A DNA stretch of 64,000 nt from Mobula birostris (Eukaryota), in the NCBI RefSeq assembly GCF_030028105.1, contig NW_027278339.1, positions 62,001-126,000 on the forward strand, written 5' to 3'. The position numbers and the translations under genes were made by a program. Within the stretch, counting starts at the first letter, position 1. Each line of letters begins with the position of its first letter. Of this stretch, positions 4,551 through 50,800 are shown piece by piece. Under the pieces are notes generated by a model. It was not told where the DNA came from and did no database searches. It worked only from the letters and a program-made list of their open reading frames with translations.

Positions 4551-5050
4551 NNNNNNNNNNNNNNNNNNNNNNNNNNNNNNNNNNNNNNNNNNNNNNNNNN
4601 NNNNNNNNNNNNNNNNNNNNNNNNNNNNNNNNNNNNNNNNNNNNNNNNNNNNNNNNNNNNNNNNNNNNNNNNNNNNNNNNNNNNNNNNNNNNNNNNNNNN
4701 NNNNNNNNNNNNNNNNNNNNNNNNNNNNNNNNNNNNNNNNNNNNNNNNNNNNNNNNNNNNNNNNNNNNNNNNNNNNNNNNNNNNNNNNNNNNNNNNNNNN
4801 NNNNNNNNNNNNNNNNNNNNNNNNNNNNNNNNNNNNNNNNNNNNNNNNNNNNNNNNNNNNNNNNNNNNNNNNNNNNNNNNNNNNNNNNNNNNNNNNNNNN
4901 NNNNNNNNNNNNNNNNNNNNNNNNNNNNNNNNNNNNNNNNNNNNNNNNNNNNNNNNNNNNNNNNNNNNNNNNNNNNNNNNNNNNNNNNNNNNNNNNNNNN
5001 NNNNNNNNNNNNNNNNNNNNNNNNNNNNNNNNNNNNNNNNNNNNNNNNNN
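4551..5050. other. Assembly gap (500 N)
   Basis: N run; the round size suggests a scaffolding gap of unknown true length. A second gap lies at 5415-5562. Confidence 0.98.
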
Positions 5051-7059: not shown

Positions 7060-7168
7060 CTGCCAACAGGCGCGCTGCGGCCACCCGGGGCGGGCTGCGC
7101 TCTGATTGGCGGAGCGCGGGGTCCTTCGACCGGGCGTGTGGCGGCGGTAAGATGGCGGCGGTCAGACA
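7060..7168 (+). promoter_or_regulatory. CpG-rich housekeeping-type promoter and first exon for ACIN1
   Basis: GC box GGGGCGGGC 7087-7095, inverted CCAAT (ATTGG) 7105-7109, YY1-type AAGATGGCGGCG 7149-7160 overlapping the ATG. Confidence 0.75.
7152..7168 (+). CDS. ACIN1: ACIN1 candidate first coding exon (MAAVR-Q)
   Basis: ATG in YY1/Kozak context; donor CA|gtgagg in phase 2, matching the phase-2 acceptor at 12914. Confidence 0.65.
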
Positions 7169-10100: not shown

Positions 10101-13100
10101 TTTAACCCTATTTGGTCCTACACTCAGTCTAGTCATCCACCTGTTCACGTAAGTATAGAATGCTTTGGGGCTTTCCTTAACCCTACTCACCTAGGCCTTC
10201 TCATGTCCCCTTCTAGTTCTCCTAAGATCATTTTTAAGTTCCCTCCTGGCTACTTTTTAACTCTAGAGCCCTTTCTGGTCCTTGCTTCCTAAACCTTAAG
10301 TAAGCTTCTTTCTTCATCTTGATGAGGTGCTTCACATCTTTTGGCAATCGTGATTTCTTCACCCTATCATCCTTTCCTTAGTTTGATGAGACCCACCTAT
10401 CTAGAACCCAATGCAAATGCTCGCTAAACAACTCTGCATTTCCATTGTGCATTTCCCTGCTCACATAAATAACATCGTAATTGCCCCTCCCCGAATTAAA
10501 TACTTCCCCATACTGTGTGCTCCTAACCCTATCCAAGGTTATGGTAAAGGTTAGGGGAATGGGAAATCAGAGTACGAGAGACAGACAAACAGATGGAGAA
10601 TATCCAAGAGAGAGACGGACAGAGAGGGACAGGCAGACAGATGGGGAATATCAGAGAGAGAGAGAGATAAAGAGTATCAGAGGGACAGGTAGATAGATGG
10701 GGAATATCACAGAGAGAGAGAGACGAAGATAGGAAGTATCGGAGAGAGTGACAGACAAACATGGGGAAAATCAGAGAGAGATGGAGAAAGTCATAGACGG
10801 AGAGTATGAGAGAGAGACGGAGATGGGGAGTATCAGAGACAGAGATGTGCCTCATCTATGGAGATGAGGAGTATCGGAGAGAGATGGAGATGGAAAGAGA
10901 GATGGGGAGTGTTGGAGAGAGAAACTGTCGGAGACAGAGATAGGGAGCATTAGTGGGGGAGATAACATTAGGGAATATCAGAGAAAGGAGGAGAGAGAGG
11001 TATGGGCAATATCAAAGAGACAGGAAAATATATGAGAGGGGAAATACTGAGTGAAGTCCCCATTCCTGTTCCAGAGAAGGTGATCCTCAGTAACTGCAGC
11101 GGCAGAGTAAGGCTTCCTCCTCATCCCATCCTAGTGTCGGCGAAGGATGGATTTGGCAGCTACAGGGTTAACCCTGGCTGAGCCCCTCCCCCTCCCTGTC
11201 TCTCTAAGCCGCACTGCCTTCCTTCGTCATGGCGGGCAGAGCAGAAGAGAGCCTCTGCAGCGTTAAATAATAGAGCGGTGTCGGGCTAGGAGCCTGCCCA
11301 TCCGGGTAGCAGGTGAGGCCATCCATGGGTGCACGGTCCCCTTCCCTCCCCACCCCTGCCCTCCCCCATCCCCTAAAGCCCACACAGCTTACAAAACCCT
11401 CACCGCACAGTGGGCAGATGAATGGGGGAAAGGACAGAATAGGAGCCTCCTGCTGAGCCTGGTGCTGCCAGCGCTCGCACTCTCTCTCTCTCTCTCCTTG
11501 TTTCTCCCTCCAACTCTGTTTTCTTCCTGATTCTTCCTCCCACCTCCCATCTCTGTCCTCACCACCACCCTGTCCTGTCCCATCCAGACCATTCCCCGTT
11601 CTCCATGTCACCCCCTTCCCCTCCCCCTCCCCCTCCCCCTCCCCATCCCCTCTGTCCTTCCCCCCTTTCCTGTCTTCCACTCCTCTCTTTCTGTCCTTGT
11701 CCTTTAACCTCTCACCCATGCCCTCTGTCCTTCCACCTCCCAATGTCCTATTCCCCGTTCCTTCTCCCCTCCCACTACCCTTCCCTCCTTCCTGTGCCCC
11801 TCCATCTTCCCCTCTCCCTCCCTCCCCATTCCCCCTCCCTCTCCATTTACCCCCCCTCCCCATTCCCCTCCCCTTTCCTGATTCCCCCTCCACCCACCCC
11901 CTCCACTCTACCCTCCAACCCATCCCCCACTCCCTCCGCCCCTCCACCCCCACCTTCTCCCCCTCTACCCATCCCCATCCACCCTACCCTCCCCCTCCCC
12001 CTCTCCTCCCTCCCCTCCCCCTCTCCTCCCTCCCCTCCCCCTCTCCTCCCTCCCCTCCCCCTCTCCTTCCTCCCCTCCCCCCCTCTCTCCCCTCCCCCCC
12101 TCTCCCCCCTCCACCCTCCCTCCCCCCTCCCTCTCTCCGCTCTCCCCCTCCCTCTCTCCCCTCTCCCCCTCCCCTCCTCCCCCTCCCCTTCCCTCTCCCC
12201 CTCTCCTCCTCCCCCCTCTCCCACCTCCCCTCCCCCCTGAGGACAGGGTGGGCAATGGTGTGGAAATCTGAATACTAATGTGGTTTCCATGGGGAGGTGG
12301 ACGGGGATTAAGATTTGGACTATCAGCGTATGTGCATTTGTGTCTGTGTGACAAAGTGGGAGGGAGCGGGAGGGAATGAGTGTGTGTGATATGTGTATGT
12401 GTGGGAAAGAGGTGATGGGTGTGTGGGAGAAAGAGATGTGACTGTGTGTATATGTGATCATGCACGAGAGTCAAAATCTCAACATTACTGAACCTGTACA
12501 TCTCAGGACTGTAATGAGGTCTGTATTTCAGGAACATAACAGGGATCTGTATAACTCAGGAGTGTGCCAAGAGTTTGAGTATCTCGGGACTGTAACACTC
12601 TGTGTATCTGAGGAGTGTGACAGGGTCTGTGTATCCCAGGAATGTAACAGGGTCTGTGTATCTGAGGAATGTAACAGGGTCTGTATATCTCGGGAGTGTG
12701 ACAGGGTCTGTGTATCTGAGGAATGTAACAGGGTCTGTGTATCTTGGGAGTGTAACGGAGTCTCTATCTCAGGAGCGTGACGGGGGTCTGCGTATGTCTC
12801 CGGAGTCTATTATCTCCCTGCCGCAGGAGCTGGAGGGGTCGGGGTTTGAATTTGCCTAGATCATGCCATTGACCTAGGTAACCCCCTTAATCTGGCTCTG
12901 CTCTCCCCGACAGAGAACAAAAGCACCCCGCCATGGAGAACGAGCCTGGCGCAGAGTGCGATCCCAGTGCCCTTCCACCCCAGCAGCTGAGTGAAGAGGG
13001 CCTCCCCGAGGGAGACAAGAGAGAGGTAAGGAGGGGGAGCAGCGGGGAGGGCTGTCTGAGGTACGGGCTTGAGGAGATGGGGGTGGGGTCAAAGGTTATG

Positions 13101-16100
13101 GGTGGGTGGGGCGTCATCGTATGTGGGTGGAGGAGTGGGGGTTGGTAGTTAGTGTGGGTGGGTCCAGCAGGCACTGGGTTAATACTGGGTGGGAGGTGGG
13201 TGCCATGCTTCCCCCTCCCCTCCCCTCCACCCAGCTTCCCTCCCCTCCCCTCTCCAAGAGACCTGGTCGTCACAGGTCAGGGAAGGGTTCATGAACTCCA
13301 GTACTTACTTCCAGACCAGTGGTGGTGAGCTCAGAGAGTCTCTCCCACCATTCCTGGGTCATCGGGAGGCTCCTGACGAGCCCCCCTCCCCTGCCCTGTC
13401 CTTAAATCCCCTTCCACTCTCCTCTGTCTCTGCATTCCCCCCCCCGCAACCCTCTACATTCCCTTCATCCCCTGTCCGCGTTTACATCCCCTTCATCTCT
13501 GTCCCCATCTTCATCCCCTTCATCCCCGTCCCCATCTCCGTCTACAACCACTTCATCCCCCGTCCCACTCCACACCCCCTTCATCACCCGTCCCCGTTCC
13601 CATCTTCATCCCCGTCCCCGTCTACACCCCCTTCATCCCCGTCCCCGTCTACATCCACTTCATCCCCGTCCCCACCCCCTTAATCCCCGTCCCTATCTAC
13701 AGCCCCTTCATCCCCGTCCCCGTCTACACCCCCTTCATCCCCTTCATCCCCTTCCCCATCTCCGTCTACAACCACTTCATCCCCCGTCCCACTCCACACC
13801 CCCTTCATCACCCGTCCCTGTTCCCATCTTCATCCCCGTCCCCGTCTACACCCCCTTCATCCCCGTCCCCGTCTACATCCACTTCATCCCCGTCCCCACC
13901 CCCTTAATCCCCGTCCCTATCTACAGCCCCTTCATCCCTGTCCCCGTCTACACCCCCTTAATCCCCGTACCTATCTACAGCCCCTTCATCCCTGTCCCCG
14001 TCTACACCCCCTTCATCCCCTTCCCCATCTCCGTCTACAACCACTTCATCCCCCGTCCCACTCCACACCCCCTTCATCACCCGTCCCCGTTCCCATCTTT
14101 ATCCCCTTTATGCCCATCTTCATCCTCTTCATCCCCGTCCCTGTCTACACCCCCTTCATCCCCGTCCCCACCCCCTTCATCCCCGTCCCCACCCCCTTCA
14201 TCCCCGTCCCCGTCTACACCCCCTTCATCCCCCGTCTACGCCCCCTGAATCCCCATCCCTGTCTACACCCCCTTCATCCCCTTCTTCATCCCCGTCCCCA
14301 TCACCGTCTACAACCACTTCATCCCCTGACCCCCTCCACACCCCCTTCATCATCCGTCCCCGTTCCCATCTTCATCCCCATCCCCGTCCCCGTCTACACC
14401 CCCTTCATCCCCGTCCCCATCTACAACCCCCTGAATCCCCGTCCCCGTCTACACCGCCTTCATCCCCGTCCCCTTCTACACCCCCTGAATCCCCATCCCC
14501 ATCTTCATCCCCGTCCCCATCTTCATCCCCCCTCGCCATCTTCATCCCCCGTCCCCATCTACACCCCCTTCATCCCCGTCCCCATCTTCATCCCCCCTCG
14601 CCATCTTCATTCCCCGTCCCCGTCGACACCCCCTTCATCCTCTGTCCCCACCCCCTTCATCCCCTGTCCCCGTCTACATCTACGTCCCCGTCTACGCCCC
14701 CGTCCCCGTCTACACCCCCTTCATCCCCGTCCCCGTCTACATCCCCTTCATCCCCGTCCCCACCCCCTTCATCCCCGTCCCCATCTACATCCCCTTCATC
14801 CCCGTTCCCGTCTACACCCCCCTTCATCCCCGTCCCCGTCTACTCCCCCTTCATCCCCGTCCCCGTCTACATCCCCTTCATCCCCCGTCTACACCCTCTT
14901 CATCTCTCCATCTCTCCCCACTCTCCTCGATCATCTCCCCTGTCGTTACCATCTCACTATCAGCTAACTCTTACCTATTCCCGCTCCATCACCTGGGCCT
15001 CTCCCTGCCCTTGTGCTTGCCTCTTCCACACAGTAATTCAACTGCGGGGAGCGGTCATTTCAACCCTCCCCCCCCCCCCCCCCCGACACCCCATCTCCTT
15101 CCTTCCCCTTGTCTCAACCAGGTCCGGGGTGGTGAGGAGGGCTTCTGGGTGCTGGCTGGCTGGTCCATCTCTGGCCTGGGACGGTGGTGGGGTGGGGCCA
15201 GGTGGCGGAGGGGTGGAGGGGGTTTGGGGAAGGATGGGAGGTGCAGGGGAGGGGGAGGAGGTGCTGAGCTGATGTGTTGAGTGGGGCTCCTTCAGCTCCA
15301 GAGTGAACCTGTCAACCATGCTGTGTATGCTGTTACCACAATAGCCCCAGATAAGCCCCATGACTACTCCACTGACCATCCTGTTGGACTTGGGCCTAGT
15401 CAGAGCAAAAAGCCTCCGGCACGTGCACAGCGAGAGAGAGGGAGAGAAAGAAAGATGGTGAGAGAGAGAGAGAGTGAGAGAGAGAAAAGGGGGTGTGCGT
15501 GTGCATTCCCCCTGATTCCACCCACACCCCCTCACCCCTGCCCCCCCAGCCCCGCAATAAGCAACACACTGGCCAAGAAGGCCCTCCCACCAGCACCCAG
15601 GAGGAGGAAGGGGGTCAGTCGACGCATCAGAAGCTGTTCGAGAAACCACTCGCCTTCCAGGGGAGGGAACAGACACTGGCCGATGGTCACACGTTGTGGC
15701 AATCTGCCTCTGTGCCTGCGTCGGAGACAGAAACTTCGCTGCCTTCTCCAGCTCCCGGCATCCCACTGCTCGAAGAAGTAGCCGTCCTCCTAAGGAGGAA
15801 GAAGACACTGGCAGATGGTCACACGTTGTGGTGGTCTGCCTTTGTGAGTGCATCAGAGAGAGAGAGAGAGACAAAGATTCTGCCAACTTCTCCAGCCTCC
15901 CCCTGCAGCCCCTTCACCCGCCAGTCGCCTTCCCGGGGAGGGAGCAGACAGATGGTCACACGTTTTTGCAGATTGTGTTCGTGTGCTGATCAGAGACAGA
16001 CTCCACCATCTTCTCCAGCTCCTTCCACCCCACTGCTCGAAGACCAGCCATTTTCTCAAGGAAGGGAGAAGACACCGGCGGATGGTCACACGTTGTGGCG

Positions 16101-19100
16101 ATCTGCTTTTGTGTGTGCACCAGCGACAGAGACTCCCCACCCTCCCTCCAGCCACTGCTCGAAGACCAGCCACCTTCCTGGGGAGGAGGCGGACGGATAG
16201 ATGCACGTTGTGGTGGTGGTGGTCCATTTGTGTGTACGTCATGAAAAGACAGAGACCCCACCATCTTCTCCAGCCTCCCTCCATCCCATTGCTCGGAGAA
16301 TCAACTGTATCCCCTCAGAGGGAGTGGATGGTCACACACTGTGGCAGTCTGCGTCAGAGAGAGACAAGGCTCCGTCACCATCTCCAGCCTCTCCCTGTAC
16401 TCCCTCCATACACTGCTCAAAGAACAAGCCATCTTCCTGGGAAGGGAACAGACTGGCGGACACACGTTGTGGTGGTCTGCCTTTGTGTGTGCATCATGGA
16501 GAGGCAGAGGCTTCCACCTTCTCCAGCCTCCCGCTGCTCAAGGAACTGGCTGTATTCCCGGGGAGGCAGCGGATGATCACAGGTTGTGGCGATCTCCGTC
16601 ATCAACTTCGGCAGAGCGAACTGGGATGCAGGAGGCGCACAGACTGGCAGCTTTTCGAACTGTCGGCGAGGGGAGATGGCTTCGGTGACCGTCTCCTGGT
16701 CCACGGCCCTGTCTTCCTGCCCCGCTCGCACACTGCAACCGTGCGGTGGGGACAGGAGGAATCCCACCAGCGAGGATTGCTGCCCCTGAGCCACGAGCCG
16801 GCAGGCAAAGAGGAAAGCTGCCACACACAGAGTCGCAAGGACAGAGGCTTCCTCCAGTCGGTGAGAGAGATGGACGCAGAGAGAGCAAGAGGGGTGGGGG
16901 GGGTGCCGCAGTCTACACTGACTAACAGACTGACCACCGACCCCCACCTCCAACCAGGAGCCCCCTCCTTCACATCTCCGTCTTTTCCGAGGGAGGCACT
17001 ACCATGGACTCCATCCTGGCCGTTTCAGCCTTCTCAGCCGAATACAAAATTGTGGGACTTTTCAGCAAAAGAAGCGAAGCATTTGGCTGCTCCACCCTCC
17101 CTTCTCCCCACACAGCCCCGTCTCACCCACCTCCTCCTCCTCCGGCCGGAGACTGGACTGGGCACCGAGACTCTCGCTCACCGGAACTGACTCTTTTTCT
17201 CGAGAATGCGTGTGTCACCCTCCCTCACGGAGCGTTAAAACTCACATCTCACTGCACCACTTATCAGTGGGGGCCCCACTCTGTTTGGACTGTTGCCTAT
17301 ACACAGTACACAGGAGTGCGACTGAGTGCCAGCTCAAGGCATTGCACTGAAGACCAGGTGTGAAAGGGTACCTGGAACATTTGTCATTTCATAAGTTCTT
17401 TCTCTTTGATTTTAATCTGTATTTAAAAGCTTATTTTCCATGTTATATCTTAAAGACAAGTAATTCAGCAAAGATTTTAATTTCTTTATTTTATGCCAGA
17501 GAGGCAAAGAAACACCTTATAGTAATTTTTTTTTGTTAAAACAATGGAACGTTTGTTAGTTTAACAGCTGAATGGGCTGGGGTTTTGATGTAAGGGGTGG
17601 TCATGGATGAGGGATTTGGTGTTAGCAGGATGTGGGGGGGTGGTGGTGTTAGGAACTTGGTTGTGGGGTTGGGGAGGTGGGGTCTTGGGGGAGAGAACGG
17701 CACTGGCCCCCTTGTTCCTGGAGGGAGAAGGGTGGGGGAAAGGGGGAGAGAATCATTATTGAGCAAATTAAAGTACAATTTCATAAATGGTCGGCATTCA
17801 CAGGGGATGGAGTTTGGAGGGAATACGGGGCAGGGAGCTGGGGTGAGGGGCTCCCCAGGCTCCGAGGCTCCTCTCCCCTCCCAGAGGAGTGGGGGGGGGG
17901 GTGGTGATCCCTCGAGGAGGGGTGGGGGAGATTAGCAGAGGCTACACCGGGTGTACAGGGAACCAGTGTCGTTCTCCCCCTGGCCAGGGCATTTGAGGGT
18001 GGGGGGGCTGGAGGGTGGGGGTCCGCGAGAAGGGCAGGGGGAGGATGCTGAGGCTGAGCACTAAGCCAGCCTGCCCCTCCCCATGGCCTCACGCACCGTT
18101 CCCCTCCCCCTCCCCTCGGGGGTCTTCTTTCTGTTGCAGAGCACAGTGCCAAAGGCCTTCAAGAGGAAGATCTCGGTGGTTTGTGAGTACCTCGCGTTGT
18201 CTGCTGTCTGTCCTCAACCTCCACCTCATTGTAGCTGAGGCCTCCCAGTCCCACCCAGAGTCTCATCGAGGGGAGGGAGCCGGTTCAGTCTGGGTCCAAG
18301 AAGTGGCAGGTCAAGTGATACTGGGGAAAGGGTTTCAGTGTGACGGGATGTTTTGGAGAGAACTTTATTCTGTGTCTAACCGCAGGAGTGCATGATGGGA
18401 CGGTGTGAGGGAGCTTCACTCTGTTTCTAACTCTAGGATTGTGTGCTGGGACGATGGGGAGGGAGTTTCACTCTGTGTCTGACCCTGGGAGTGTGTGATG
18501 GGACGGTGTGGAGGGAGCTTCACTCTCTGTCCGACCCCGGGAGTGTGTGATGGGACGGTGTGGAGGGAGCTTCACTCTCTGTCTGACCCCGGGAGTGTGT
18601 GATGGGACGGTGTGGAGGGAGATTCACTGTGTATGTGACCCCGGGATTGTGTGATGGGATGATGTGGAGGGAGTTTCACTCTCTGTCCGACCCCGGGAGT
18701 GTGTGATGGGACGGTGTGGAGGGAGCTTCACTCTCTGTCTGACCCCGGGAGTGTGTGATGGGACGGTGTGGAGGGAGATTCACTGTGTATGTGACCCCGG
18801 GATTGTGTGATGGGATGATGTGGAGGGAGTTTCACTCTGTGTCTGACCCCAGGAGTGTGTGATGGGACGGTGTGGAGGGAGCTTCACTCTGTGTCTGACC
18901 CTGGGAGTGTGTGATGGGACAGTGTGGAGGGAGCTTCACTCTGTGTCTGACCCTGGGAGTGTGTGATGGGACGGTGTGGAGGGAGCTTCACTCTGTGTCT
19001 GACCCCGGGAGTGTGTGATGGGACAGTGTGGAGGGAGTTTCACTCTGTGTCTGACCCTGGGAGTGTGTGATGGGACGGTGTGGAGGGAGCCTCATTAGTG

Positions 19101-28100: not shown

Positions 28101-31100
28101 ATGATTAGGCTGGGATTAAATCAGGGGTTGTCGGGCACTGTGACACGAGGGGTTAGAAGGGCCTTTTCGGCATTGTTTCTCTAAAAACAAAATAAACTTC
28201 AGAAGAATGAGAGAACACCTTATAGAGACAGAGTTGATTCTATTTGTAGGTGAGAATAGAACTAGTGAACATAACGTCAAGATGCAGCGGATTAAATTTA
28301 AGAAGAAGATGAGGAAAAACAGCTTTCACCAGATTATAGTGATTCTGGAACTCTCTGCCCAGAGAAGCTGTAGGAGCTACCTTATTATTTATAGCTAACA
28401 CACAGTTAGGTAGATTTCTACATAGGGGAATTACGGGTTATGGGGAAAAGGCAGGGAGGTGTGACCAAGTCCATGGCCAGATCAGTCATGATCTGATTGG
28501 ATGGCCTAGTAATGCTCATATTTCTTATTGTCTTCTGTGTCTGACCATGGAAGTGTGTGATAGGATGGTGGGGAGTGAGATTCGTTCTGTGTCTGTCTCC
28601 GGGAGTGTGTGATGGGACGGTCTGGAGGGAGTTTCACTCTGTCTGTCCCCGGGAGTGTGTGATGGGACGGTGTGGAGGGAGTTGCACTCTGTGTCTGACC
28701 CCGGGGGTGTGTGATGGGACGGTGTGAGGAAACGTTACCCAGTGTGAGCAGTGATGTGTCCCTGTGCCTGAGTAGATACGTTAGGGGTGGGTAATTAGTT
28801 GTGACTGAACTGACTGTGCCTCTATCCCCAGCCGCCAGTAAGGTTGGGCCAGTGAGCAGTGGGGACTCGGATAGCAGCCAGCCCGCCCGCAAACGGCGGT
28901 GGGGATCCAGTACCGTGGCCACACAGAAGAAACCCTCCATCAGCATCACCACAGAGTCCCTGAAGGTGAGGGCTGAATGCTACTGCTGACCTGGTGTCTA
29001 ATGTATGCAAACCCCTCATCTCCCCATTGCCAGTGTCACCATTCGCCCTCACCTCCTCCCTAACCCCTCCCCGCCCAACCCCTCACCTTCATTCACCCCC
29101 AGTCCTCGCGCCTTCCTCTCCCCTCACAAACACTCGCTCGCCCCCCCCCCCCCCCATTACCTTCCTCTCCCACGATGCACCCCAGTCTGTGTGCTGTGCG
29201 TCCGGGCTGGACGGGCATCTCTGACTGTGGGCTCTCTCCAGAACCTGATGCCGGAGATGAAACCGGCGCTGGGGGCCGTGCCCAGCCCGGGCCAGGAAGT
29301 GGTGGTGGAGCTGCACCCAGACGATGCCCGCATCTCCGAGGAAGAGGGCGAGAGGGCCGAGGAAAAGGGCAGCCAGGACCGGGGACTGAAGATACGGCGC
29401 ACTGTTACGCAGGTATCCATGGCCCATCTCCCCTCCCTTCTGCTGATCTTTTCCTCTCCCTCTCCCCATCTCCACTCCTTCTCATCTCCCTCACCAATGT
29501 CCACCTCCCCAAATCACCCTCATCTCCCCTTCCTTCCCCAATCTCCCCCCCTTCCCTTCTCGCCTATCCCTCAATCCCCTCCCTCATTTTCCTGCTTCCC
29601 TACTCCCTACCTCCTCCCCTGCTCTGCTGTTGACTTCTATCACCCCCCCGCCCTACCCGCCGTCTCTCTCACCTCTATCCCTAGCCCTTCCCTCTCCCCG
29701 CCTCCTTCATGGACCTTCCTCTCCCCAGGTGGTGACCGCGGAGGGTCCAGAGAACGGAAAGGATGATGATCGGGATGAGGAGGAGGAAGAGGAAGAGGAG
29801 GAGGAGGAGACACAGGCGAAGGAGCCTGAGGTGCTTCCCCCGGTGGAACCCGAGGTTCCTCCTGCCGTGGAGGTTGAGCTCAAGAAGGGTGAGTGAGCTA
29901 GGTTGGGATGTCCTGGAAATTGGGAACCTGCGGTAACACTTTGTCCTCTCTATGTCCGTGTTGTGACATGCGATCCGTCTGTGACCGCTCCATGTCCCTG
30001 TCAGGACTGTGGTCTATTAGAAAACCGATCTTCGTCCCTGCCTTGCAGTCAGACCTGTTTCTCTACCCTCAGTAACTCCGAGTGAAACAGTCGTGCGGCG
30101 TTCGATAAGCCAACAGAAGACGGGGATGTCGGTGACAATCGATGATCCAGTGCGGCCGGCGCAGAACCCCTCCCCACCCCGAGGGAAGACCAGTCTCATC
30201 GTACACATCTGTAACCTGGTGAGTTCCTGCACAAGTTCCGGTGCCATATCCGTGGGTCGGATCCACACCGGGAGCACCATGCAGTTCCCGTTTCAGTATC
30301 CGTGGGTCAGACCCACACTGCGAACGCCGTGCAGTTCTTTTTTCAGTGTGGGTCAGACTCACACCAGGAACACTGTGCTGTTCCTATTTCAGTATCCATG
30401 GGTCAGACTCACACCAGGAACACCGTGCTGTTCCTATTTCAGTATCCGTGGGTCAGACTCACACCAGGAACACCGTGCTGTTCCTATTTCAGTATCTGTG
30501 GGTCAGACCCACACTGGGAACACCGTGCTGTTCCTATTTCAGTATCTGTGGGTCAGACCCACACTGGGAACACTGTGCTGTTCCTATTTCAGTATCTGTG
30601 GGTCAGACTCACACCAGGAACACCGTGCTGTTCCTATTTCAGTATCCGTGGGTCAGACTCACACCAGGAACACCGTGCTGTTCCTATTTCAGTATCCGTG
30701 GGTCAGACTCACACCAGGAACACCGTGCTGTTCCTATTTCAGTATCTGTGGGTCAGACTCACACCAGGAACACCGTGCTGTTCCTATTTCAGTATCCGTG
30801 GGTCAGACTCACACCAGGAACACCGTGCTGTTCCTATTTCAGTATCCGTGGGTCAGACTCACACCAGGAACACCGTGCTGTTCCTATTTCAGTATCCGTG
30901 GGTCAGACTCACACCAGGAACACCGTGCTGTTCCTATTTCAGTATCCGTGGGTCAGACTCACACCAGGAACACCGTGCTGTTCCTATTTCAGTATCCGTG
31001 GGTCAGACTCACACCAGGAACACCGTGCTGTTCCTATTTCAGTATCCGTGGGTCAGACTCACACCAGGAACACCGTGCTGTTCCTATTTCAGTATCCGTG

Positions 31101-47845: not shown

Positions 47846-50800
47846 TCAGGCACTCTCCTCAGCAGGTTCTGCGGAGAAAGGAAGGGAGATAATTAATCCA
47901 ACACAGACTACATCTGAGAGCACACAATCAGAGTGTGCTGGGGGTGAGGGGCAGTGTGAGGGAGCTGGATTAACGTCAGTGACATGGCACTGGGGGAGAG
48001 CAGTTACTGTCCTGTGTGAATAATTACTCACTGTGAGAGTCTCCCTTACCCTGGCTAGTGGTCTGTTCAGCGAGCACTGTCCTGTACAGATCGTAGGCAT
48101 CATACATCAATACACCCGTCAGAAAGAATCCGAAAACCTGTAATCAAAAATAAATGCTTTTGTCCAACCCTGGGAGTGTGTGATGGACAGTGCAGTGGCA
48201 GATTCACTCTGTGTCCGACCTCGGGAGCATGTGATGGGACGGTGTGGAGGGAGTTTCACTCTGTGTCTGACCCCAGGAGTGTGTGATGGGACGGTGTGGA
48301 GGGAGCCTCACGCTGTGTCTGACCCTGGAAGTGTGTGATGGGAAAGTGTGGAGGGAGCTTCACTGTGTGTCTGACCCCGGGAGTGTGTGATGGGACGGTG
48401 TGGAGGGAGTTTCACTCTGTCTGACCCCGGGAGTGTGTGGTGGGATGGTGTGGAGGGAGTTTCACTCTGTCTGACCCCGGGAGTGTGTGATGGGATGGTG
48501 TGGAGGGAGTTTCACTCTGTGTCTGACCCCGGGAGTGTGTGGAGGGAGCCTCACTGTGTGTTTGACCCCATGAGTGTGCTTTGGGACTGTGACGGAAGCC
48601 TCACTCTGTGTCTGTGGGATGAGACGATGCAGAGGGAGGTTCACTATGTGTCAACCTCAGGAGTGTGTGATTGGGTGGTGGGATGAGCTGGTGTTTTGGG
48701 ACAGTGATGGGAGCCTCACTCTTCCCACTTACTGCAGCCGCTGCCATTCCTGACCCTCCACTCCGAACAGACGAGATGATGGAGAGAATGAGGAAAATGA
48801 GGGCTGAGATGACAGCTCGCACGAAGTCCTGAGGGAGGACAAGAAATTAATGTTAGTTCTGGATCCCGTGTAATCTAACCTTCTAAATCAGCCTGCTGCG
48901 AGGAACCTTGTCGAGTCCATATGGATAATATCAACCACCCTACCCTCCTGGTTCCTTCCTCAAGGAACTCCAAGAGATTTGGTCGGACGCAACTTCCCAC
49001 ACACACAGTTGTGTTGGCTGTCCCAAACCAGGCCCTGTCCATCAGAATCCCCTCTCTCAACTTACCCACCACCAACGTCAGACTCATTGGCCTTCTGTTT
49101 CCTGGCTTGTTTTTGCGACCCTCTTTAAGCAATGGTACCACATTAGCCACTCTCCACTCACCCAGAACCTCACCTGTGGCCAGAGGTGAAGCAAAAATCT
49201 CCACAAGGGTCTCCACGATTTCTTCAGCTTCCCACAAGCCTCGAGAATGCACCAGGTCAGGGCCTGAGGATTTACCCACCTAATAGACTTTAAGGTCTCC
49301 AGTACTTCCTCCCTCCTAATCTGTGTGTACCCAAGATGCCACCCATTCACTCCCTGAGCTTCCATTGTTCTCTCCACAGTAAAAACTGAAGAGAAATGCT
49401 CATTAGAAAATCTCTGCCATGTCCTTCAGTTCCACATGCAGACAGCCATGCTGATCTCTTGAATTTTGCCTCACCTATGCCTGACAGATAAGACCACAAG
49501 ATATAGGATCAGAATTCAGCCATTTAGCCCATCGAGTCTGCTCTGCCATTTTATCATGGTTGATCCAATTCTCCTCTCAGCCCCAATCTCCTGCCTTCTC
49601 CCCATATTCCTTCGTGCCCTGACCAAATGAGAGCCTATCAACCTCTGCCTTAAATATATCCAATGACTTGGCCTCCACAGCTGTCTGTGGCAACGAATTC
49701 CACAGATTCACCAACCTCTGGCTAAAGAAATTCCTCCTCATCTGCATTCTAAATGGACGCCCCTCTACTCTGAGGCTGTGTCCTCTGGTCTTGGAGTCTC
49801 CCACAAAAGGAAACATCCTCTCCACATCTACTATCAAGGCCTTTCACCTTTTGAGAGATTTTAATGAGGTCACCCCTCATTTTTCTGAATTACAGTGAAT
49901 ACAGGCCCAGAGCCATCAAACACTCCTCATAAAGACAAGCCTTTCAATCCTGGAATCATTTTTGTGAAACTCCTTTGAACCTTCTCCAATGTCAGCACAT
50001 CCTTTCTTAGATAAGGGGCCTAAAACTGCTCACCGTACTCCAAGTGAGGCCTCACTAGTGCCTTATAAATCCTCAAAATTACATCCTTGCTTTTATATTC
50101 TAGCCTGGAAACGAATGCTAACATCGCATTATCTTCCTGACCACAGGCTCAACCTGCAAATTAACCTCCAGGGAATCCTGCACAAGGATTCCCAAATCCC
50201 TTTGTACCTCAGATCTTTGTATTTCCTCACCATTTAGAAAATAGTCAACCCTTTCTACCCAGATCCATACCATAGCCTTGTTCTCTCCTAACTTCTCTCC
50301 TCAGTGCACTCCTCCACTTCCTGCAACCATTGAGAGATTCTCTTGACCCAACTACCTCCACCCAACATATGCCTCCTTTTTCCCAACCGGAGCCTCAGTA
50401 TCTCCTGTCAGCTTGGGTTCCCTAAACCTGCCACCCTTGGCCTTCATCCCGCTGGAATACTGTATTCCAGGATTTCAAAAACGCATCTTTAAAAGCCTCC
50501 CACTTTCCAGTCGTACCTTGACCCATAAAGAGTTTAACCCAATTGACCCTGGCAAGATCCTATCCAGTGCTTCTAAAATTGGTCTCAAGTTTAGCGGCTT
50601 AACCTGTGACATTTTAAAATTAATAGAATTGTCATTGGACTCAAAGTAGTTCCTGACTTGCACAACAGATATAGAACATAGAACAGTACAGGCCCTTTGG
50701 CCCACAACGTTGTGCTGACCTTTTAACCCACTCTAAGATCAATTTAACTCTTCCCTGTCACATCATCCTCCGTTTTCCTTTCATCTATGGGCCCATCTAA

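Follow-up and report, generated by a model that had tools for sequence, protein, structure and literature searches.

The ACIN1 gene of the ray Mobula birostris carries a stop-containing cassette exon of about 2 kb, alternatively included between two constitutive exons, as contigs with both inclusion junctions and with the skip junction attest. We read this cassette, with a probability of about 0.7, as an unproductive-splicing (poison or detained-intron) switch whose RNA would be detained or degraded by nonsense-mediated decay (NMD), probably as a feedback brake on Acinus. The DNA analysed (the window) is a stretch of 64,000 nucleotides that holds the 3′ part of the ray ACIN1 gene; a 44-aa exon in it is identical to stingray protein P0001. 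The features that frame the cassette are as follows.

7152..7168, + strand: coding part of a putative S-type first exon with its ATG at 7152, placed by sequence and resembling the start of P0001

12914..13025, + strand: upstream ACIN1 coding exon with a phase-0 donor, placed by tblastn of P0001

13453..14885, + strand: C-rich satellite of 27/54-nt units in the upstream intron, placed by sequence

15345..17367, + strand: giant stop-containing cassette exon, defined by contig junctions

18140..18182, + strand: downstream constitutive ACIN1 exon, defined by transcript contigs

Transcript contigs came from 8 of 22 listed runs, covering six organisms and six studies. The runs are presumed to be RNA, with no RNA record attached; their contigs connect exons that 5- and 10-kb introns separate, and the runs therefore derive from spliced RNA. 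The junction that skips the cassette (13025>18140) was present in all eight. The inclusion junction (13025>15345) was present in two runs, X1 and X3, both from organism A, whose exon contigs are letter-identical to the window, and one X3 contig spans from the upstream exon through 15345 to 17367. The junction that leaves the exon (17367>18140) was found in X1, X9 and X16, from organisms A, C and H, with GT..AG at the joint in X9 and one substituted letter in X16. Loose contig ends at 15343 and 18138 carry the 3′ end of exon 12914-13025. The acceptor is a weak TAG ending at 15344 (15344|15345) and the donor falls at 17367|17368; the exon measures 2023 nt to this distal donor and 2013 nt to a proximal one.

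Unspliced flanks appear in contigs of X5, X6, X9, X10, X11 and X16, which cannot separate mature from nascent RNA. X5, X6 and X10 each have one contig crossing both cassette borders, X11 crosses both in separate contigs, X16 crosses the acceptor, and an X9 contig covers the downstream intron from 17451 onward and continues into exon 18140. Contig depth over the cassette was 256-349 in X1 and 163 in X3, against 925 and 622 over the shared exon, a rough sign, depth being a poor measure of abundance, that the included form is not rare. The cassette contigs of X1 and X3 stop at the donor, and in X5 and X6 depth falls about tenfold past 17630. A poly(A) site at the contig ends around 17630-17657 was considered and rejected, as the ends coincide with G-rich sequence and 17201-18139 holds no canonical AATAAA.

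The host intron, 13026-18139, is single-copy in the genome. The initial annotation had described it as free of recognisable transposons, and a crude blastn comparison against the window plus 60 kb upstream found dispersed-copy matches over 0% of it, against 33-79% of five other ACIN1 introns; the description had, however, passed over a 1.43-kb satellite (13453-14885) and eight repeats. Without the satellite, the upstream intron measures 886 nt. The eight repeats, which lie inside the exon, were rejected as a transposon because they have a single match in the genome and no second copy. Elsewhere in the window, a 52-nt tandem repeat family occurs three times (18338-19094, 28531-28726 and 48167-48541), two of its members adjoining ACIN1 exons, and loci L003-L004 (G000:C4338:12001-32000) hold long ORFs that, judged from their translations, resemble a LINE-1-type element.

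The 5′ part of the gene yielded further observations. A CCAAT-box promoter with the S-type first exon (ATG 7152) lies at 7070-7168, and a second candidate first exon at about 11230-11315 (window 11230-11320) has an early stop and a GTGAGG donor; the two may be alternative S and S′ starts. The SAP-domain 5′ exons of ACIN1 (the L-form) lie on another contig, at G000:C12:16929930-16947421, shortly before a long run of N, while the RRM exon is single-copy and lies on the window's own contig (G000:C4338). No SAP exon was found in the 60 kb upstream of the window, where an exon of amino-acid-permease type (SLC12-like by reading) was seen at L002:1790-2674. Either the assembly has separated the SAP and RRM exons, or ACIN1 has undergone fission in rays. 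All five batoid cluster members are short (506-623 aa).

Within and around the cassette, the following features bear on how it is spliced and read.

15245..15425, + strand: most conserved block, comprising the acceptor region and the first 81 nt of the cassette, from relatives' contigs

15459..15461, + strand: premature TGA, codon 39 of the cassette, read from the sequence

15634..16606, + strand: eight degenerate repeats, read from the sequence

16919..16957, + strand: branch point and CAG singled out by the initial annotation, inside the exon, with no acceptor use seen in contigs

17004..17357, + strand: 118-codon ORF from an ATG in strong context, identical to the N-terminus of RefSeq model P0025

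17268..17367, + strand: exon end common to turtles, an upstream motif block plus tandem donors, from alignment, contigs and P0025

17368..17638, + strand: U-rich downstream intronic tract, by base composition

The initial annotation had proposed a 400-nt poison exon beginning at 16958 and a productive 51-nt cassette beginning at 17307, two acceptors sharing the donor at 17357. The motifs it named are in place: TGACTAAC at 16919-16926, a CAG ending at 16957, 130 open codons, a CAG ending at 17306 and 51 nt from 17357, a TGA at 17348-17350 and CAG|GTGTGA after 17357. It was also right that a conserved, stop-containing alternative exon ends in this donor region, but that exon is 2013 or 2023 nt long rather than 400, and the stretch it flagged is the last fifth of the larger cassette. 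The acceptor actually used is that of 15345, and the frame has already stopped at codon 39 (15459), well before 17348. Among the contigs listed, neither 16957 nor 17306 coincides with a joint, a loose end or a contig break in any of the eight runs, and none of the junctions 13025>16958, 13025>17307 and 17357>18140 occurs, which leaves the 51-nt form with no junction there. Of two neighbouring donors, 17357 is the proximal one and is used by P0025, but no joint or loose end falls on it in the same contigs. Instead of a choice between two acceptors, we saw skipping, inclusion and unspliced forms, plus two donors 10 nt apart. TGACTAAC, a motif picked post hoc, is a good branch-point match (as good in 6 of 500 shuffles), yet the tract before 16957 is very poor in U, its 25 nt including 2 T where the other acceptors examined have 7-10, and no ACIN1 protein examined has a short insert at this junction. 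We give the two-acceptor model next to no credence; contigs lose rare forms, and its junctions could occur as minor ones. The putative site at 16919-16957 is possibly a decoy. Nor did the 130-codon frame hold up as a signal: the + strand of the exon has eight ORFs of at least 130 codons, 375 of 500 shuffles have one (66 of 2000 in a fixed frame), and the frame has no Pfam match and is broken in organism B.

Inclusion adds 38 codons and then the TGA at 15459-15461, in a cassette with eight in-frame stops overall. The distal donor is 1906 nt further on and is followed by at least nine coding exons; this distance far exceeds the >50-55 nt upstream of a later junction that marks an NMD candidate. 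The stop also lies 206-243 nt after two S-type ATGs, a start-proximal position that may hold for S-type transcripts only, given that L-form exons exist on another contig. In the available text of PMC12477815, stops in exons of at least 1000 nt and start-proximal stops are both classed as partly evading NMD. Decay of the included RNA would on both counts be only partial, the stop being within a 2-kb exon and, in S-type transcripts, close to the start, and partial decay would explain the high steady-state signal.

Over the first 200 nt after 17367, the sequence behind the donors is 42% T and 26.5% GC, and at +25 to +100 the T fraction is 0.47-0.50, against 0.12-0.33 after five other donors of the gene, in agreement with the U-rich tract described in the initial annotation. 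Two more AGs lie 40-50 nt 5′ of the used acceptor (window 15290-15303), within the conserved block, and may be alternative or decoy acceptors. Searches for other kinds of signal were negative. Rfam gave nine weak matches, none near the gathering score; local hairpins had z scores of +2.9 at the acceptor and +0.9 at the donor, the acceptor block folding worse than 200 of 200 shuffles; GAAGAA-like enhancers were not enriched in the cassette (2 observed, with as many in 78 of 500 shuffles); and the ESM Atlas held no usable match to the 38-aa in-frame peptide.

If the cassette is a switch, ACIN1 transcripts would skip 15345-17367, include it or keep its flanks unspliced; skipping would yield Acinus, and inclusion or stalled flanks would yield RNA without full-length Acinus from the normal start. 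Included RNA would likely be held in the nucleus or degraded by NMD, and the outcome would probably be a feedback brake on the level of Acinus. Acinus or the ASAP complex may itself favour inclusion, acting on the weak acceptor and on the U-rich tract that follows the donors. The passages available from PMC4986896 report binding of Acinus to weak introns and to T-rich motifs 25-100 nt behind donors, and a need for Acinus in cassette-exon inclusion; with such a tract present here, feedback of Acinus on its own cassette is plausible. The ACIN1 passages of that paper contain 0 mentions of autoregulation. Acinus is an essential EJC/ASAP-associated splicing factor whose knockout is embryonic lethal, according to the part of PMC12019242 available. 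Among the points against the switch, only one organism showed the acceptor junction, weak decay would account for the high steady-state signal as readily as high flux, and Chrysemys models read the insert as 498 open codons.

Among relatives, the acceptor region is 96-99% conserved, whereas the body drifts with frameshifting indels. X11 has one difference in 181 nt of 15245-15425 against 27 in 382 nt of the body and beyond (Fisher p 2.9e-4), X16 has one in 145 nt of the acceptor block against 140 in 1738 (p 2.1e-4), and X10 has 11 in 271 nt (15155-15425) against 167 in 1989 (p 0.011), three tests that are not independent, as the organisms are related. The TGA at 15459 sits in a GA repeat skipped in the read comparison, and these figures exclude the stop codon. 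The body, which differs at 7-8% of positions in these comparisons, is 88-94% identical among relatives with many indels, and over 17048-17638 X11 has 21 differences in 591 nt. Its least conserved part is the repeats, of about 125 nt each at a spacing of 115-137 nt, mostly not a multiple of 3; the relative X9 has an extra duplicated piece in the array. Frameshifting indels occur in organisms B, C, D, E and H. Organism B, about 99% identical, has a 2-nt deletion at 17194 and four further organisms have a 5-nt deletion at 17071-17073, so that both the 130-codon frame and the 118-aa start of P0025 are broken. Conservation is thus of a non-coding type, with splice regions kept and frame not kept. 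An alternative coding exon was rejected on the open frame not being kept among relatives, the eight in-frame stops and the want of a Pfam match to the 130-codon frame. We also rejected an element of the ultraconserved type, as the body is not near-identical and only about 100 nt at the donor can be aligned to turtles.

The exon ends in tandem donors 10 nt apart, CAG|GTGTGA after 17357 and AGG|GTACCT after 17367, the distal one used in contigs and the proximal one in P0025. Of 129 proteins with the short downstream exon, 17 have unusual sequence before it, and nine of these models carry sequence of the cassette end (P0025, four Chrysemys, one Terrapene, two Sceloporus and one Anolis). The four Chrysemys models have a 498-aa, repeat-rich insert at exactly this junction. 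The ends of the Chrysemys and Terrapene models (P0017, P0032) are the same DNA in two frames only at the 10-nt donor offset, where 1 of 63 codons is incompatible, against a median of 23 over 31 offsets. The two frames fix 7 positions of the donor spacer, and ray and turtle DNA agree at 6 of them. When the turtle-derived 100 nt were anchored by their end at 4940 intron positions, the top score, 25, fell at 17367; the best of 4879 distant anchors scored 13, and 0 of 2000 shuffles reached 25. A free local alignment without the donors landed at 17268-17324 (3 of 300 shuffles). This likeness was noticed before it was tested, and the turtle DNA was deduced from two predicted proteins of two species. 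We infer from these sequence comparisons that the donor pair is shared with turtles, and it would therefore be about as old as jawed vertebrates.

In one shared frame, the lizard peptides match those of turtles (0 of 2000 shuffles). No significant match to the ray was found for the 5′ end of the turtle insert or, directly, for the lizard peptide; the turtle insert has internal repeats as well, but they have no similarity to those of the ray; in tblastn, reptile exon ends hit the intron with low-complexity noise only; and a search for relatives of the turtle 498-aa insert returned only itself and one flank match. Among the mammal, amphibian and teleost proteins examined, none has recognisable exon-derived sequence, which is expected for a non-coding exon and is not evidence of its absence. 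The Sceloporus models (P0047, P0148) end the exon at two donors with 33 nt between them; the upstream donor coincides with a motif that reads VRL and is present in the ray near 17318.

The same data could be explained in other ways. The exon-containing RNA might be stable and have a job of its own, as a nuclear-retained RNA with protein-binding repeats or as template for a truncated Acinus-S peptide of about 81 aa, with the lowering of Acinus secondary. Such an RNA would fit the contig depth, roughly between a quarter and a third of that over the shared exon, the applicability of both NMD-escape rules, the single-copy repeat array paralleled by an internally repetitive turtle insert, and the near-invariance of the first 81 nt of the exon, in frame. 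However, conservation is lowest in the repeats that would do the work, where indels and copy changes are numerous, and these repeats are unlike those of turtles; no Rfam family reaches its gathering score; and the conserved block continues for 100 nt on the intron side, as would be expected of splice signals. We consider this explanation improbable.

A coding role would be taken from RefSeq, which predicts a 623-aa Acinus whose new N-terminus stems from the ATG at 17004 and the proximal donor. P0025 matches 17004-17357 at 100% and joins exon 18140, the ORF is in frame with the downstream exons via that donor, the ATG context is strong, and Sceloporus and Anolis models also begin or run in this exon end. 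P0025 is, however, probably an annotation of this very locus, and the frame is not conserved, being broken by the deletions at 17194 in organism B and at 17071-17073 in four more. Turtle models read the same DNA in two different frames, the contigs extend 1.6 kb upstream to the spliced upstream exon, and none of the best 150 HMMER matches has its best stretch before residue 109. An alternative coding start is therefore very unlikely. We put still less faith in splicing noise or nascent RNA, that is, cryptic sites in a transcribed intron whose conservation would simply reflect the closeness of the species compared. Several runs do have unspliced contigs only, and nearby intron also aligns at 90-95%, but noise would sit poorly with precise GT-AG junctions at one donor in three organisms, with the roughly tenfold drop in depth past 17630 (X5, X6) and the X1 and X3 exon contigs that end at the donor, and with a significant peak of conservation at the acceptor together with the turtle match.

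The switch may have a human counterpart. In the sections of PMC4737145 available, which concern intron retention and decoy exons in erythroblasts, introns beside exons with premature termination codons (PTC exons) are retained far more than others (mean 0.21 vs 0.025), the retained introns tested are nuclear, and an 804-nt human ACIN1 intron (chr14:23537881-23538684; Table 2) rises in retention from 0.08 to 0.24 in late erythroblasts. The available supplement of PMC11390650 lists a 142-nt human ACIN1 exon ending at hg38 23069476. As far as these entries go, that exon fits in length the 47-aa exon, the homologous upstream exon. The implied offset is 469,209, which we take to be that between hg19 and hg38. 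Read together, the entries indicate that the donor of the homologous upstream exon is probably where the human retained intron begins, and that this is probably the same intron as the ray's. Its 804 nt resemble the 886 nt left in the ray without the 1.43-kb satellite, which has expanded in the intron 5′ of the cassette; the available part of PMC4737145 lists the retained intron but no adjoining exon. Annotation databases probably already hold the human counterpart. The ACIN1 exons tabulated in the accessible part of PMC11390650 proved to be other events, the portions available of the PMC8091538 and PMC12019242 supplements gave no ACIN1 match, and HNRNPA1 regulates an ACIN1 exon whose identity the passage at hand does not give (PMC5932609). 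The literature searched, mostly outside subscription papers, contained no account of the exon or of ACIN1 autoregulation.

Splicing regulators are known to host poison exons, and what is unusual here is size and architecture. In 2007, Lareau reportedly described conserved poison exons of such regulators, among them SRSF3 exon 4 and SRSF6 exon 3. Exons of this type measure tens to a few hundred nucleotides. The ACIN1 cassette resembles them in its splicing-regulator host, in being a skip-or-include cassette with an early stop, in conservation that peaks at the splice regions and in apparently retained flanking introns. It differs in measuring about 2 kb, with a poorly conserved, repeat-filled body that is not ultraconserved, in its tandem donors, in a stop position that predicts partial escape from NMD and in feedback that is putative. 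ARGLU1 intron 2 combines a detained intron with an NMD cassette that is short and ultraconserved, and its autoregulation has been demonstrated. The three outcomes (spliced, poison-included, retained) appear common to both genes, but the ACIN1 cassette is giant and its feedback putative. SRSF6 exon 3 also appears in section 15 of PMC4737145, in the part available.

A broader account would join all of this, and we regard it as unlikely. A giant poison exon, built unlike the textbook ones, would have throttled Acinus since the origin of jawed vertebrates with only its two ends fixed, around a freely evolving repeat middle long enough to weaken NMD and keep the transcript nuclear; the unchanging pair of donors 10 nt apart would set the frame with the RRM/RSB exons and, through it, whether re-initiation can rescue a short Acinus; and the same unit would lie behind ACIN1 retention in human erythroblasts.

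Should the switch reading be true, the cassette would lend itself to testing, its junctions being exact and the element abundant in ordinary samples, and its size would offer a natural test of how a poison exon acts when the long-exon rule weakens NMD. The odd ACIN1 isoforms of rays, turtles and lizards in RefSeq and Ensembl would then be pieces of one non-coding cassette, read in different frames.
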